A stretch of DNA of 4,331 bases from a virus (taxonomy: Duplodnaviria > Heunggongvirae > Uroviricota > Caudoviricetes): IMG/VR virus record IMGVR_UViG_2698536508_000019. One strand, written 5' to 3'. The notes under the pieces are model-generated. The model did no database searches and was not told the origin of the DNA. It saw only the letters and a program-made list of their open reading frames with translations. Made by a program: the position numbers and the translations under genes. Of this stretch, positions 1 through 4,331 are shown piece by piece (within the stretch, counting starts at the first letter, position 1; the number at the start of each line of letters is the position of its first letter).

Positions 1-119
1 CAATACGGTTCTGACGAGTCGCTTACTTTTAACGTACCTTTTTTTATTCCTTTCAGCGCAATTAACTGCTCTTCGGATACCCATTTGCCGGGAGAGACAA
101 TCATGATTACTTCGCTCAT
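1..119 (-). CDS. 5' portion of a small ORF running off the window start (MSEVIMIVSPGKWVSEEQLIALKGIKKGTLKVSDSSEPY...); possibly excisionase-like (Xis/DUF1233-type) protein
   Basis: Hand translation of the minus strand from ATG at 119-117 (a second in-frame ATG lies at 104-102); the frame stays open to position 1. It lies 72 bp downstream of the exonuclease stop, in the same orientation, where lambdoid phages carry xis. The SD is weak (AAGAGA about 14 nt upstream). The excisionase-like call rests on recalled resemblance of the W-x-S-x-x-L-x-A-x-x-G-x-K-x-G-T-L pattern to putative excisionases; not verified. Confidence 0.4.
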   Translation of the reverse strand, partial: MSEVIMIVSPGKWVSEEQLIALKGIKKGTLKVSDSSEPY

Positions 120-148
120 CGATTTCTTTATCTCTTACATCAGACGAG

Positions 149-180
149 CGCCGGTTGCAGAATACCAGTCACAACCGGCG
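149..180 (-). other. GC-rich hairpin (9-bp stem cgccggttg / caaccggcg, 14-nt loop) in the 72-bp spacer between the exonuclease stop and the xis-like start
   Basis: Perfect inverted repeat 149-157 / 172-180 read directly from the sequence. No U-tract follows on either strand, so it is not a canonical intrinsic terminator; could be an mRNA processing or stability element. Confidence 0.4.
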
Positions 181-191
181 ACAGTTGAACA

Positions 192-2663
192 TTAAGAATC
201 AGCCTGACTCGGGATCAGTTTTTGCCAGATAACTGAAACGTATTTTGCCTGGTAACGGGCGTCATCAAGTGCATTATGGCGCTCACCTTCGAATGGAATA
301 GCCGTTCTGGCATCGAAGTCTATGGCTTTCCCCAGCTCAACGATTGTGCGTACATCGCGATCGTTGTAGTAACGCCACGGGCAGGGGATCCCCTGCCGTT
401 CGTATGAACGGCGCAAAATCGTGTTGTCGAAGTTGGCTCCATTTCCCCAGACCTGAACAAAAAATTCACCGGAGTTTTCGTCGATAAATTCCCGCAATTG
501 TAACAGTGCATCATCTAACGGGATTTCATCGGTCATAATGGCAGATTGCGCTTCGCGTGATTGCTTAAGCCACCATTTAATGGTGTCCCGATCAATGACT
601 CCGCCAGCAGTTTCCAGATCGATAGTCTTACTAAATTCCGGTCCCATATCTCCGGTTTGCGGATCGAAAAATATTGCACCTATTGAGATGATCGGGGCAT
701 CAGGATTTTTTCCCATGGTTTCAAGGTCGATCATTAGATGGTCACACGTCCTGCTGGTGGATGTGATTTCGTGATGACCGTTCACCTTAATTGGGTGATC
801 TGCCGTCTCGCCAGTTTCATTATCGCTATTGTGATGCTGATTGCCGCCAGTGTTCTCCTTGTGTGGATGTTCAGCGCCTTCCATTTCCTCCGGATCATCT
901 TCCTGAACTTCAACCTGATACTCTTCATCGAATGTTTCTTGGTATGTTGCGTCGCCCATCACCGCGCCACAATCAGGGCAGTTGCCGCCGCCGGTCTGAC
1001 CGCAGGCGGTGCAGGCTTTTTCCACTTCCTGTTGCGCCACTGGTTCAGGCTGTTTCGTTTCTGGCTCGTTTTGTAACGCATTTGGACTGTTTTGTTCCGC
1101 TTTTTGGTAGTTCCGTTCCGATTCATGCTGGTTCTGGTTCACAGAATCGCGGGTCTGGATCCCCTTAACCCATTTCGGATCATTCGGGTCACTAATCCCT
1201 TCAACAAATTCACCACGTGATGCAGCAAGCAACTTATCGGCGTCAGGCTGGCTGATATTGGCTGCCTGCATAATTTTGTTTACTTCGTCAGCGGTAACTT
1301 TTATCGGCTCTGGTTGTTCTGAATCTTCAGCGGTATCTACATTTTGCGGTAAGCCCGTGTATGTGCCATTTTTTCGGGCAAAATATTCTTCTTTTGTGAT
1401 TTCAGTGGCGCCAGCAGCCAGTGCCTTATCCAGACCAGAAAGTTTGTTTGCGCGACCGTATTTTTCTCCGTCCTTATCTGCGAAGAGGAAATAGAACGGC
1501 CCCTCACGCTCTACAGATGGTTCAGCTTCCGGCGCGGTTTCATTTTTTGGGATATCAGATACCTCAGTTTCCACTGCATCAGTTTGTGTTTCTGATGACT
1601 GGAGAACATCAACAGTGCCCAGGTCTGTTTCTTCATTCTCAAACACGCCCTTTGTCGTCAGGTATTCGCAGATATATTTGTTCAGTGCTACGGGATCTTT
1701 GTGAATGTCGATCGGACGCTCACGGACAAGGCCAAAAATAGTTTGGCGGTCGTAGCGAAGGGCATCAGGCTGTTTGCGCATTGATGCCGAGATACGCTTC
1801 CAGTCTTCGCGGTCGTTGTCGATAACTTCTTTTTTTGCCCAGCGATGGATGCTGCCGTCAATGTTTCCGGCATCCACATCACCAGGCCAGAGAGCGTAGG
1901 CCAGTTCGTCATCCAGTGTTTTCCATGTCTGCTTGTATTCGCGATGAATGGCAGCAATGACCGGGCTGATTTTTCCTGTTGAATTTTCAGTGTACTGTTG
2001 ATTGGCTCTGGCGCGGGCGAGATCAACAACAGACGTGTATTTTCCGGTTTCCTTGCGTTCACCTTCGCGACGTTTTTTCCAGATGCGCATCTCTGCCTGA
2101 ATTTCGGGCCATTTAGCACCAGGAATACATTTATGCTTAACCCACCCAATGGCGTGCAACTTAAGCTCCGGATACATGGCGTTAACTTCTGGCATTTTCA
2201 TCAACGCTTCAACGATATGTCCGTCGAATGTTGCCATGTCTTCCTGCAACAATTCCTGTGCGCTAATAACCATATCAACGGTGATGTTTTCACATGTGTC
2301 GAACTTAACCATGACAGCGTTCTGTACTTCAGGGGCCAGCTTGTCAAAAGTGACGTTCATCGGATCGGATTCAGTCTCAACCGGGACAAAAGAAGCAGAC
2401 TCCTCATCCCAGCGGTTTTCCTGCATATATTCAGCATCCCATGAATCGAGGGCAGGGCGGGGTATGCCAGGTTTATCCTCGCAGACAATAAATTTATAAG
2501 CGCAGTCCTGAGCAGCCGGATAATGTTCCAGGAACTGCCAGTGAAATTTTGCTCGAGCACGGCGTTCGTCGCCAGCTTCAATGGCTGTGGCTACAGCCAC
2601 AGAGCCTTCTTCCCTTGTTGCCAGTTCGTCAGGAATAGCGGCGCAAATAAAGACTTTACTCAT
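192..2663 (-). CDS. Exonuclease VIII-like mosaic protein: RecE-like middle segment, CxxC-x7-CxxC zinc-ribbon motif, C-terminal DEDDh (DnaQ-like) 3'-5' exonuclease domain
   Basis: Single 823-codon ORF (ATG 2663-2661, TAA 194-192). GAGG Shine-Dalgarno motif (plus-strand cctc at 2674-2677) sits 10 nt upstream of the ATG. Segment DKLLAASRGEFVEGISDPNDPKWVKGIQTRD (aa 476-506, nt 1146-1238) matches, from memory, a segment of E. coli Rac RecE. CTAC...CPDC at aa 551-565 (nt 969-1013). C-terminal domain (aa about 640-815, nt about 219-746) carries the three DEDDh motifs: LMIDLETMG (D646 at 726-728, E648 at 720-722), GANFDNTIL (D746), HNALDDA (H796 at 276-278, D801 at 261-263). Confidence 0.92.
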   Translation of the reverse strand: MSKVFICAAIPDELATREEGSVAVATAIEAGDERRARAKFHWQFLEHYPAAQDCAYKFIVCEDKPGIPRPALDSWDAEYMQENRWDEESASFVPVETESDPMNVTFDKLAPEVQNAVMVKFDTCENITVDMVISAQELLQEDMATFDGHIVEALMKMPEVNAMYPELKLHAIGWVKHKCIPGAKWPEIQAEMRIWKKRREGERKETGKYTSVVDLARARANQQYTENSTGKISPVIAAIHREYKQTWKTLDDELAYALWPGDVDAGNIDGSIHRWAKKEVIDNDREDWKRISASMRKQPDALRYDRQTIFGLVRERPIDIHKDPVALNKYICEYLTTKGVFENEETDLGTVDVLQSSETQTDAVETEVSDIPKNETAPEAEPSVEREGPFYFLFADKDGEKYGRANKLSGLDKALAAGATEITKEEYFARKNGTYTGLPQNVDTAEDSEQPEPIKVTADEVNKIMQAANISQPDADKLLAASRGEFVEGISDPNDPKWVKGIQTRDSVNQNQHESERNYQKAEQNSPNALQNEPETKQPEPVAQQEVEKACTACGQTGGGNCPDCGAVMGDATYQETFDEEYQVEVQEDDPEEMEGAEHPHKENTGGNQHHNSDNETGETADHPIKVNGHHEITSTSRTCDHLMIDLETMGKNPDAPIISIGAIFFDPQTGDMGPEFSKTIDLETAGGVIDRDTIKWWLKQSREAQSAIMTDEIPLDDALLQLREFIDENSGEFFVQVWGNGANFDNTILRRSYERQGIPCPWRYYNDRDVRTIVELGKAIDFDARTAIPFEGERHNALDDARYQAKYVSVIWQKLIPSQADS

Positions 2664-2756
2664 TTTGTTTTAACCTCATGACAGATTTAAGGATGAACAA
2701 ATCCCTGCCATTGCTGGCATATAAGAATGAAACCGGATATTTATTACGGAACTGTT

Positions 2757-2948
2757 TTAAAGACCTGCCGGGATTTCGATATTATCCTGGTGAATAACTT
2801 TATCGACCGGGTAACAGTTACCGGGAATTTTCTGTTCGGTTGCTGCAGTCATACACTCCTGCATTGTCCTGTGAACACTGACTGCAATATCAACTGGCAC
2901 TCCGGAAACAAGAAAAACTGTCAGAACAAGCGCAAATGCTGAATTCAT
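2757..2948 (-). CDS. Small hypothetical protein (63 aa) with a hydrophobic N-terminal segment; possible single-pass membrane or exported protein
   Basis: ATG at 2948-2946 overlaps the TGA (2947-2945) of the upstream gene as an ATGA coupling motif. An AAGGA SD-like sequence sits 9 nt upstream, inside the upstream gene's 3' end. Product MNSAFALVLTVFLVSGVPVDIAVSVHRTMQECMTAATEQKIPGNCYPVDKVIHQDNIEIPAGL has about 25 hydrophobic N-terminal residues and two Cys. The six-frame track extends this ORF to ATG 3002, but that would overlap the upstream gene by 58 nt in another frame. Confidence 0.55.
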   Translation of the reverse strand: MNSAFALVLTVFLVSGVPVDIAVSVHRTMQECMTAATEQKIPGNCYPVDKVIHQDNIEIPAGL

Positions 2949-3133
2949 TGTGCACATCCTTTTGGCATCAGACGTAAACGAGCCAGCATTGAAACAATGC
3001 ATATTTTATTTAATAGCTCCCGTTCTTGTTTTCTCTTGTTAATGGCATCTTCAGTAAATACAGGGTTACTGATAGTGACACCAATTTCAAAACAACCTTC
3101 AGACGTATTAACGTTTGGTAATAACGTTTTCAT
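2945..3133 (-). CDS. Small hypothetical protein (62 aa); Kil-like (KilR-type host-killing protein) by position only
   Basis: ATG at 3133-3131 is preceded by a strong SD (GAGGA, plus-strand tcctc at 3141-3145, 7-nt spacer). Product MKTLLPNVNTSEGCFEIGVTISNPVFTEDAINKRKQERELLNKICIVSMLARLRLMPKGCAQ; TGA at 2947-2945. Position and ATGA coupling to the next small gene mirror the kilR-ydaE arrangement upstream of recE in Rac. No sequence-level identification was possible. Confidence 0.6.
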   Translation of the reverse strand: MKTLLPNVNTSEGCFEIGVTISNPVFTEDAINKRKQERELLNKICIVSMLARLRLMPKGCAQ

Positions 3134-3150
3134 TATCGCGTCCTCAACAA

Positions 3151-3298
3151 TGAATTTTGTGATGCAGTGCCTGGTGCCTCCAGGTGACGTTAACCAGTTA
3201 ACAATTAACGTCGGATACAGAGAATCCACCCATAACACTGTTTTTGGTTTTAACTGTTCCGCGTGCGCTTAGCCGTATTCACCGCATCACAAAATTCA
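3151..3298. repeat. Pair of 19-bp inverted repeats (18/19 match; 15-bp perfect core tgaattttgtgatgc / gcatcacaaaattca) bracketing a 110-bp segment
   Basis: Left arm 3151-3169 (tgaattttgtgatgcagtg) and right arm 3280-3298 (caccgcatcacaaaattca) are reverse complements with one a/g mismatch. The left arm ends 18 nt upstream of the Kil-like ATG and abuts its SD. Confidence 0.8.
3186..3212. promoter_or_regulatory. Operator-like palindromic cluster gacGTTAACcaGTTAACaaTTAACgtc (8-bp inverted outer arms, three TTAAC repeats)
   Basis: Read directly: gacgttaa (3186-3193) is the reverse complement of ttaacgtc (3205-3212); GTTAAC palindromes at 3189-3194 and 3197-3202. It lies 55-80 bp upstream of the leftward Kil-like gene, inside the segment bracketed by the 19-bp inverted repeats. 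A CCTGG-n5-CCAGG mini-hairpin (3170-3184) is adjacent. Confidence 0.4.
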
Positions 3299-3385
3299 CT
3301 TTAAAAAGGGCGGCAGAGCAGTCACGGAGTAAAACTGATACCGCCAAACGTCACCAGAAAATTGATAACAGAGGGCGTTGCAGCG

Positions 3386-3556
3386 GGGTTGTCACTTAAG
3401 CGTATGGTCAACCTGACAACCCGGTGTCCTCAACGGGGAAGGAATAACCCCGCCATACTTACCGCCGCGCCATTTTGCGGGTTGCCACAACCGGAAGCGC
3501 ACGGTCGAATTAAATTTAACGACACCGTACAGTGAGACGAACTTCGCCGTGCGCTT
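3386..3556. other. Cluster of nested inverted repeats in an ORF-poor, relatively GC-rich stretch; possible structured RNA or attenuator-like element or multi-site regulatory DNA
   Basis: Inverted repeats read from the sequence: gggttgtca/tgacaaccc (3386-3394 / 3414-3422); cgggg/ccccg (3434-3438 / 3448-3452); aagcgcacgg/ccgtgcgctt (3495-3504 / 3547-3556, 10 bp perfect). An inner hairpin around the 10-bp palindrome TTAAATTTAA (3510-3519) has a stem (3501-3507) that overlaps the left arm of the 10-bp repeat, so the two pairings are mutually exclusive. No ORF with an RBS or protein-like composition was found here. Confidence 0.35.
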
Positions 3557-3598
3557 TCGTGTTGTGTGCCTGCTTTTAACCACGTCAGGCGAGGTGGT

Positions 3599-3627
3599 AT
3601 CCTTAAAATCACCACAGTTTTAAGGAT
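3599..3627. promoter_or_regulatory. 10-bp perfect inverted repeat atccttaaaa-n9-ttttaaggat whose right arm contains the Shine-Dalgarno sequence of the downstream membrane-protein gene
   Basis: 3599-3608 and 3618-3627 are exact reverse complements; AAGGA (3622-3626) lies 11 nt upstream of ATG 3638. Could be an operator or an SD-sequestering RNA hairpin. Confidence 0.45.
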
Positions 3628-3637
3628 TCATTAAGCA

Positions 3638-3958
3638 ATGTCGCAACCACCAATAAATCCGCTTAAGAACATGAAAATTGATTACTGGTATAAAGCGCTT
3701 ACAGTTGTTGGCGCTGCGTTGTTTGTCTTTAATGGAACGTCTTTTTTTGACAGATATCCCGTTGTTCCATTGGGTTTTTTGTCCTCCGGCATCTTTTTTA
3801 TTGGTTTGGGGGAGTGGATTAATCACCCTCTCATAGTGAGATTTATTGGTCCTGGAGTTTGGACTCGTGGATATAATCGTTCTTCGTGCGCACTCGGTAT
3901 CATCTTCGACATACTTGGTTGTTTCCTGATTGTTACAGGAGTCGTCAAGTTCTTCTGA
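3638..3958 (+). CDS. Small integral membrane protein (106 aa, about 3 predicted TM helices); candidate SieB-like superinfection-exclusion protein by position
   Basis: ATG 3638 with AAGGA SD; TGA at 3956-3958. Product has three hydrophobic helices (TVVGAALFVF, LGFLSSGIFFIGLG, ALGIIFDILGCFLIVTGVV) with charged residues between them. The overlapping minus-strand ORFs are K/N/R/T-rich, as expected for the antisense of a membrane-protein gene. It is divergent from the Kil-like operon across a roughly 500-bp gap, as sieB is in Rac. Confidence 0.6.
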   Translation: MSQPPINPLKNMKIDYWYKALTVVGAALFVFNGTSFFDRYPVVPLGFLSSGIFFIGLGEWINHPLIVRFIGPGVWTRGYNRSSCALGIIFDILGCFLIVTGVVKFF

Positions 3959-4058
3959 TGTAAAACCGCAAATGGGGCACGTAACGGGAATTTTGAAAAG
4001 CGTTTCTCCGGGTTCCAGAACAAAATTTTCTGCGGTCTGATTTTGCTTCTCATATTTG

Positions 4059-4331
4059 TGAGGTAGCCTGAGTTTAACGGACACTCCTTCCTGAAATAGA
4101 ATGGCATCAGAAGGAGCTAATAATGAGCAGAAAAACCCAACGTTACTCTAAAGAGTTCAAAGCCGAAGCTGTCAGAACGGTTCTTGAAAATCAACTTTCG
4201 ATCAGTGAAGGCGCTTCCCGATTATCTCTTCCTGAAGGCACTTTAGGACAATGGGTTACCGCCGCCAGAAAAGGGCTCGGTACTCCTGGTTCCCGCACGG
4301 TGGCTGAACTGGAATCTGAAATTCTGCAACT
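4059..4331 (+). mobile_element. Left end of an IS3-family insertion sequence (possibly IS600-like), extending beyond the window
   Basis: A TGAGG... terminus typical of IS3-family ends (5'-TG) begins at about 4059, 64 bp upstream of an orfA-type gene with a strong SD (AAGGAG 4111-4116). The OrfA N-terminus is an IS3-family HTH protein. The exact boundary is uncertain by a few bp, and the IS600 assignment is from memory. Confidence 0.75.
4123..4331 (+). CDS. IS3-family transposase OrfA (HTH DNA-binding subunit), N-terminal part, continues past window end
   Basis: ATG 4123 preceded by AAGGAG with a 6-nt spacer. Translation MSRKTQRYSKEFKAEAVRTVLENQLSISEGASRLSLPEGTLGQWVTAARKGLGTPGSRTVAELESEILQL has the characteristic (Y/F)SxEFKxxAV opening and HTH of IS3-family OrfA proteins; the open frame runs to the window end. 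Confidence 0.85.
   Translation, partial: MSRKTQRYSKEFKAEAVRTVLENQLSISEGASRLSLPEGTLGQWVTAARKGLGTPGSRTVAELESEILQ

Follow-up and report, generated by a model that had tools for sequence, protein, structure and literature searches.

The stretch at positions 3299-3598 of the DNA analysed here very probably represents the small RNA DicF together with its untranslated precursor, transcribed from the minus strand as part of the dicBF operon of a Qin-like lambdoid prophage (Escherichia coli/Shigella). The DNA, hereafter the window, is a Caudoviricetes record of 4,331 nucleotides (IMGVR_UViG_2698536508_000019), to which all positions refer unless another record is named. The stretch spans DicF plus about 240 nt of untranslated RNA located 5' of DicF in the operon. 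In the proposed scheme, the open reading frames (ORFs) inside it would not be genes.

An original prediction, made from the letters without database searches, had taken this region for a structured non-coding RNA or an attenuator, plausibly a plus-strand regulatory RNA or the leader of a neighbouring membrane-protein gene. The identity was settled by the Rfam scan, homologue comparison and RNA folding which that prediction had suggested. Its general proposal stands in that the region is a structured non-coding RNA with competing structures, whereas the strand, the target gene and the mechanism turned out to be different. DicF and its precursor have been known since 1989-1990 and were revisited in 2023; the identification has little discovery value, and its practical use lies in annotation. 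The features of the locus are collected in Table 1.

Table 1. Features of the dicBF locus and its surroundings in the window (the slash within a sequence marks a cut).
Feature	Position	Strand	Basis or remark
Exonuclease gene, 823 aa	192-2663	-	
ydfD	2757-2948	-	
dicB, cell-division inhibitor, next gene of the DicF transcript	2945-3133	-	ORF list; RefSeq annotation in O26:H11 (identical locus)
DicF 3' flank, complementary to 3467-3509	3258-3299	-	34 bp in six segments; RNAduplex
DicF Rho-independent terminator (stem 3309-3345 with loop; U tract UUUUU, 3303-3307)	3303-3345	-	Fold, relatives, PMC5069750, PMC9438474
DicF small RNA (53 nt)	3308-3360	-	Rfam RF00039; sequence identical to K-12 dicF
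Predicted hairpin P4, overlapping DicF nt 5-12	3349-3356 and 3363-3370	-	RNAalifold
RNase E cut making the DicF 5' end, AUCAAU/UUUCUGG	3360-3361	-	From the K-12 dicF 5' end; nearly invariant surrounding columns
Leader of the 190-nt intermediate	3361-3492	-	RNAalifold consensus, pair counts
Predicted hairpin P3	3388-3399 and 3408-3420	-	RNAalifold
Predicted hairpin P2	3434-3438 and 3448-3452	-	RNAalifold
Hairpin P1, putative RNase III substrate	3486-3566	-	22-bp lower stem, 3486-3509 and 3543-3566
Putative RNase III cut, making the 5' end of the 190-nt species	3492-3493	-	Published +813/+814, mapped via the predicted dicBp start
Mosaic boundary; homology to K-12 and most dicF loci stops, upstream DNA prophage-specific	3577-3578	.	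Homologue comparison
IS600 (IS3 family)	~4050-4331		orfA product starts at 4123

Identification of DicF

The Rfam scan covered the whole window at a permissive threshold (E up to 10). On the minus strand, positions 3359-3308 matched the DicF family (RF00039) with 76.7 bits versus a gathering score of 48 (E 2.4e-16), and the match extended over the full model (positions 1-52 of 52) without truncation. The dicF gene annotated in K-12 (positions 2883-2935 of the K-12 locus, L002) corresponds to window positions 3360-3308, all 53 nt being identical in the alignment (A2). The presence of DicF and the dicBF precursor on the minus strand contradicts the plus-strand RNA envisaged in the original prediction.

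No riboswitch, attenuator or other cis-regulatory family was found in the whole window at E up to 10, and besides DicF the scan returned only noise and a sub-threshold match to STnc100, a gammaproteobacterial sRNA candidate. The latter match was full-length (3101-3310, minus strand; 34.6 bits against a gathering score of 47, E 5e-5) and covers the spacer between dicF and dicB together with the first part of dicB; in Salmonella prophages, STnc100 may be the counterpart of this spacer.

Prophage context and neighbouring genes

The setting is the one expected of DicF, which is found upstream of dicB in the early operon, transcribed leftward, of lambdoid (pro)phages: all large ORFs to the left of the stretch (exonuclease, ydfD and dicB) lie on the minus strand. 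Over positions 1-4060 the window matched a prophage of E. coli O26:H11 11368 with 100% identity, and RefSeq names dicB, ydfD and exonuclease there; positions 1897-3577 were 98% identical to the Qin cryptic prophage of E. coli K-12. The K-12 equivalent of the hairpin-rich stretch is the 340-nt ydfC-dicF spacer of the dicBF operon, which carries no annotated gene. In the intact phages HannyBb and Tritos, the repressor is followed by early genes, the DicF stretch and then dicB, ydfD and exonuclease, all leftward. In most relatives of the locus, homology begins only at position 3577 and runs downward; in some it begins at 3604, and a few are homologous throughout. The structured block thus moves together with dicF and dicB, and not with the upstream DNA.

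Across 3200-3700, RefSeq places no feature in any of the 30 E. coli genomes that match best, each of them 100% identical, DicF being unannotated there, unlike in the K-12 record, which does carry a dicF ncRNA feature. Near-identical dicF loci of the E. coli type also occur in metagenome bins that bear the labels Veillonella parvula, Collinsella sp. and 'Proteobacteria bacterium', the last from soil (L007, L008 and L009), and the record of Aeromonas phage AP1 (hit H52) holds a 247-bp stretch of 98.8% identity; mis-binning or contamination is the probable origin of these occurrences.

Upstream of the stretch, on the opposite strand, lies a 106-aa ORF (3638-3958, plus strand) with three hydrophobic segments, which RefSeq leaves unannotated in the identical E. 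coli genomes. Homologues that match it over the full length, are about 100-110 aa long and share 36-58% identity occur in Yersinia, Herminiimonas, Reinekea and many metagenomes, and it is probably a real gene for a small membrane protein because homologues of such length and identity are found in distant proteobacteria. Antisense to it, the 205-aa ORF at 3620-4084 (minus strand; phrog_35040) is annotated in phage records, but its relatives are all close and variable in length, and it is likely to be a shadow ORF. Positions 3599-3627, which closely precede the 106-aa ORF and are not part of the block found in K-12, form a perfect 10-bp inverted repeat (ATCCTTAAAA-N9-TTTTAAGGAT), whose right arm holds AAGGA, a possible ribosome-binding site of the 106-aa gene, while TAAAAT at 3604-3609 resembles a -10 element; the repeat could be an operator or a translational hairpin.

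The IS600 element is inserted in the early operon from approximately 4050-4060, some 450 nt upstream of the DicF precursor, and truncates the 205-aa minus-strand ORF. None of the complete E. coli genomes searched for the IS600 junction has it. As judged from the sequence, the insertion would separate the locus from the expected dicBp/PL promoter and may interrupt transcription from the prophage promoter.

Inverted repeats, folding and strand

The sequence features described in the original prediction were all found, with two details to be corrected. The stretch is richer in GC than its surroundings (0.545-0.55 in 3301-3600 versus 0.375-0.46 on either side), and it is ORF-poor, its three internal ORFs (3362-3535 on the plus strand, 3392-3583 and 3430-3615 on the minus strand) being Arg-rich and mutually overlapping. 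Inverted repeats are dense, a repeat finder returning 15 pairs in 3200-3700. Repeats were found at 3383-3397/3439-3453 and 3386-3394/3414-3422, and an inner palindrome at 3501-3515/3514-3528 is weak (73%). The perfect 10-bp pair which that prediction had named (3495-3504/3547-3556) is present within a 13-nt repeat (3492-3504/3547-3559, 92%), but the hairpin is larger than described, the pair being the core of the 22-bp stem of P1. The presumed U-rich tail after the hairpin (3555-3576) does not hold as such, as the stem continues to 3566 and most of the T's fall within its lower part.

Folding was compared with 200 dinucleotide shuffles. On either strand the 300 nt folded better than shuffled sequences: the minus strand gave z -3.48, with 0/200 shuffles as good, and the plus strand z -3.27, with 1/200. 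The large hairpin P1 alone did so too (z -4.36 minus, -5.37 plus; 0/200 as good). Since both strands outperform their shuffles, this single sequence cannot tell which strand is relevant: for the hairpin the plus strand even folds slightly better, and it is the context and the relatives that favour the minus strand.

Relatives were collected by a DicF-core pattern scan, which yielded 8 genome loci and 120 viral contigs. These gave 97 different versions of 412 nt, whose identity to the window was 87-100%; one of the 8 genome loci (L005), a chance match in a Peptostreptococcaceae MAG, was removed. Base pairs of both the local structure and the long-range duplex discussed below were counted in 86 distinct relatives. 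With the same pairs read on either strand, 98.5% of cells were standard pairs on the minus strand versus 85.3% on the plus strand (1.5% versus 14.7% unpaired), and on the minus-strand reading G-U occurred at 27 pair positions versus A-C at 11, although the helices had been taken from folding of the minus strand, a choice that in itself favours this strand. Many pairs are G-U on the minus strand and would therefore be C-A mismatches on the plus strand. P1 offers the fairest strand test, because it is almost all Watson-Crick in the window; there, 96.6% of cells were paired on the minus strand versus 92.0% on the plus strand, with G-U versus A-C at 8 versus 4 positions and in 93 versus 6 cells.

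In the suggested covariation analysis, the pairs hold on the minus strand, but no informative compensatory (two-sided) changes were found for any helix, local or long-range, among the 86 relatives (at least 87% identical). Shuffles matched the observed values in 33/500 cases for cells paired and in 40/500 for the covariation score. The relatives being so similar, covariation neither supports nor refutes the helices; only 3543-3509, the top pair of P1, was scored as two-sided, and in half of the relatives it does not pair. Beyond the Rfam-modelled terminator, the helices are predictions based on thermodynamics and one-sided changes. The lower stem of P1 was kept in 36/36 distinct hairpin variants, and about 20 nt on the 5' side of its apical region (3510-3542; alignment A1, columns ~57-100) are replaced by at least seven unrelated sequences.

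Two further observations concern this hairpin. The segment UGUCGUUAAAUUU, on the 3' side of the apical region, is conserved among prophages along with the stem beneath. In one of the loci from metagenome bins (L008, 1178-1512; A2 columns 21-27), a 7-nt tandem duplication (GCGCACG) lengthens the 5' arm of P1, and the predicted hairpin survives.

Processing of the precursor

In K-12, DicF is processed from a polycistronic transcript starting at dicBp (Ragunathan et al., 2023, PMC10448788, confirming Faubladier et al., 1990), and no internal promoter was found (PMC10448788). A 190-nt species is RNase III-dependent, with its 5' end between +813 and +814 (PMC10448788), and the 53-nt DicF is RNase E-dependent (PMC10448788; Faubladier et al., 1990, as cited there). 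Termination at the DicF terminator has been described, as has a 72-nt form of DicF whose 3' end is made by RNase III in read-through transcripts (PMC5069750, PMC9438474). Table S1 of PMC5371410 lists an RNase III-dependent site at 1649470 ('dicF-dicB, known'). Antisense pairing of DicF with ftsZ and other mRNAs and its dependence on Hfq are experimental findings in K-12 (PMC5069750).

These reports were transferred to the window. The fold of 3303-3360 has a free energy of -15.9 kcal/mol (z -2.3), and 99.8% of terminator cells are paired in the 86 relatives. P1 is predicted to be a duplex with few breaks, some two helical turns long (at least 20 bp), as is expected of an RNase III substrate, interrupted by two 1-nt mismatches and one bulge and closed by an apical region of about 33 nt (-35.6 kcal/mol). 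The K-12 dicBp promoter was located by eye as TTGACC-17-TAATCT (L002 1903-1931), with a predicted transcription start near 1938; a simple promoter scan of K-12 for dicBp found nothing. Counted from this predicted start, +813/+814 falls at L002 2750/2751, equivalent to window 3493/3492 in the 3' arm of P1, and the distance from 3492 to 3303, the last U of the terminator, is exactly 190 nt. An alternative placement, from 3478 to 3289, likewise gives 190 nt. We infer that the published 190-nt intermediate starts inside P1, a placement that depends on the promoter prediction and on a numbering counted from the transcription start. Site 1649470 maps to window position 3272 and the expected 3' end of the 72-nt form to 3289, both in the DicF 3' flank.

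Alternative explanations

The main rival concerns where RNase III acts. Instead of P1, the enzyme could act on a long-range duplex between 3467-3509 and 3258-3299, excising DicF and its leader from read-through transcripts in a manner similar to rRNA; P1 would then be a competing structure formed when transcription stops at the DicF terminator. Such a duplex is predicted with 34 bp and -37.1 kcal/mol (RNAduplex), and 96.2% of its cells are paired in the 86 relatives, with G-U at 8/20 pairs. The putative 5' cut at 3493/3492 lies directly opposite 3271-3272, where 3272 is the RNase III-dependent site 1649470, and the 3' end of the 72-nt form (3289) falls within an 8-bp segment (3472-3479/3288-3295); moreover, the 5' arm of P1 and the DicF 3' flank are near-duplicates (repeat D1). 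Against this, once the terminator has formed, the read-through RNA is more stable in the P1 fold by about 9 kcal/mol (-115.3 versus -106.3), P1 forms first during transcription, and a 190-nt species ending at the terminator cannot include the 3' flank. The duplex shows no covariation, 10 relatives have a mismatch at 3270 and 4 at 3269, and the precision of coordinate 1649470 (26 reads versus 0; PMC5371410) is a weak point. Action on the long-range duplex in place of P1 is hence judged unlikely. P1 is retained as the probable primary RNase III site, owing to its greater stability, its earlier formation and a 190-nt species without the 3' flank, with the duplex as a predicted minority rival or second step. 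We also consider, tentatively and with more doubt than belief, that 3486-3509 might serve as a pivot, closing P1 in terminated transcripts and pairing with 3258-3299 in read-through ones to form the 34-bp duplex enclosing DicF. If so, termination versus read-through would decide the RNase III cut site and the DicF isoform (53/190 nt or 72 nt), coupling an rRNA-like excision to the terminator decision.

Three further explanations were considered. That the stretch is a plus-strand leader, attenuator or regulatory RNA of the 106-aa membrane-protein gene is very improbable: although that gene is probably real, the stretch lies directly upstream of it and in this one sequence plus-strand folding of the hairpins is just as good, the structured block stops at the mosaic boundary (3577), and most loci, including K-12, carry it without the 106-aa gene. 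The block shared among loci (3264-3577) is instead preceded by ydfC in K-12 and most of the 97 variants, which speaks against the originally proposed leader, as does the excess of unpaired cells on the plus strand noted above. A terminator scan (loop limit 3-8 nt), which missed the DicF terminator, found none on either strand in 3100-4100, which leaves the plus-strand attenuator of the original prediction without its terminator; no promoter-like site precedes the hairpins (the nearest plus-strand match is at 3198-3225), and 3308-3360 are accounted for by DicF on the opposite strand. Equally improbable is a DNA-level regulatory region, likewise raised originally, with the inverted repeats as protein-binding operators. 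The repeats are dense and the locus belongs to the early regulatory region of a prophage, but the arms are 10-24 nt long and 33-42 nt apart (33 nt in the large hairpin), unlike operator half-sites, the variation among relatives keeps G-U pairs, which matter for RNA and are irrelevant to DNA symmetry, and the known operators of the dicBF system are at dicBp, adjoining the repressor gene (PMC10448788). A small phage protein is more improbable still. The candidates are the 63-aa ORF at 3392-3583 (minus strand), which matches phrog_8854 (E 5e-28) and is the only ORF in the stretch with a family match, and the 61-aa ORF at 3430-3615, called as a CDS in the HannyBb record (PP925841), which annotates CDSs even over 3322-3411. 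However, the frame of the 63-aa ORF has no ATG, GTG or TTG in 61/97 variants, a run of 4 or 5 C (a 1-nt indel) shifts its C-terminal frame in about half of the variants and others are cut short; none of the five ORFs in or beside the stretch has a Pfam match, RefSeq annotates no CDS here in K-12 or the 30 identical E. coli genomes, and one HannyBb CDS overlaps DicF, pointing to automatic over-calling. The family phrog_8854 appears to have been built from over-calls on the non-coding DicF leader.

The two HannyBb CDSs in question, CDS0036 and CDS0037 (L131 2723-2812 and 2831-3016), are recorded as 'hypothetical proteins' over the DicF leader, one of them directly over DicF.

Proposed mechanism

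With the stretch taken as the DicF precursor and P1 as its primary RNase III substrate, the following course can be proposed. The leftward early transcript would enter from higher coordinates, having started at the PL-like promoter dicBp, which is repressed by DicA/CI; both this start and the repression have been shown in K-12 and related phages. The transcript would fold into the predicted 22-bp hairpin P1, whose 3' arm RNase III would cut at about 3493/3492, as the published mapping suggests. Transcription would either halt at the DicF terminator or read through into dicB, both outcomes being established in the literature. The terminated and RNase III-cut product would be the 190-nt intermediate, from which an RNase E cut at 3361/3360 would free the 53-nt DicF, which in K-12 and EHEC was shown to be an Hfq-dependent antisense regulator of ftsZ, manX, xylR and pykA, as well as of pchA in EHEC. 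Read-through transcripts would be cut again by RNase III in the 3' flank, giving the 72-nt form.

Comparison with known systems

The closest known system is dicBF of the Qin prophage of K-12 (Bouche and Bouche in 1989, Faubladier et al. in 1990, Balasubramanian et al. in 2016 and Ragunathan et al. in 2023). The two share an identical DicF, with leader, P1 stem and 3' flank about 92% identical, the same terminator and RNase E site context, and dicB, ydfD and exonuclease/ydfE downstream in the same orientation. Unlike Qin, the window has no ydfC above 3577 but unrelated DNA carrying the opposite-strand 106-aa ORF, followed by IS600; the apical part of P1 is a different sequence variant, and the exonuclease gene is intact (823 aa), whereas it is truncated in K-12.

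P1 also resembles the RNase III processing stems that free functional RNAs from longer transcripts, such as those of 16S/23S rRNA precursors and of the lambda N-leader and sib. It is an imperfect duplex of some 22 bp, located where a phage early transcript is untranslated, and its predicted cleavage creates one end of a stable intermediate, which is afterwards trimmed by another nuclease. It differs from these stems in that the favoured substrate, a local hairpin, lies upstream of the product and does not enclose it, the enclosing long-range alternative being a prediction. Like the Hfq-dependent sRNAs SroC, CpxQ and SdhX, which RNase E makes from within operons or from 3' UTRs (PMC9438474), DicF shares the terminator of an upstream mRNA segment and obtains its 5' end from RNase E. 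Unlike these sRNAs, it is additionally processed by RNase III and has a structured leader of some 130 nt, and it lies mid-operon, where its terminator must be read through for dicB to be expressed.
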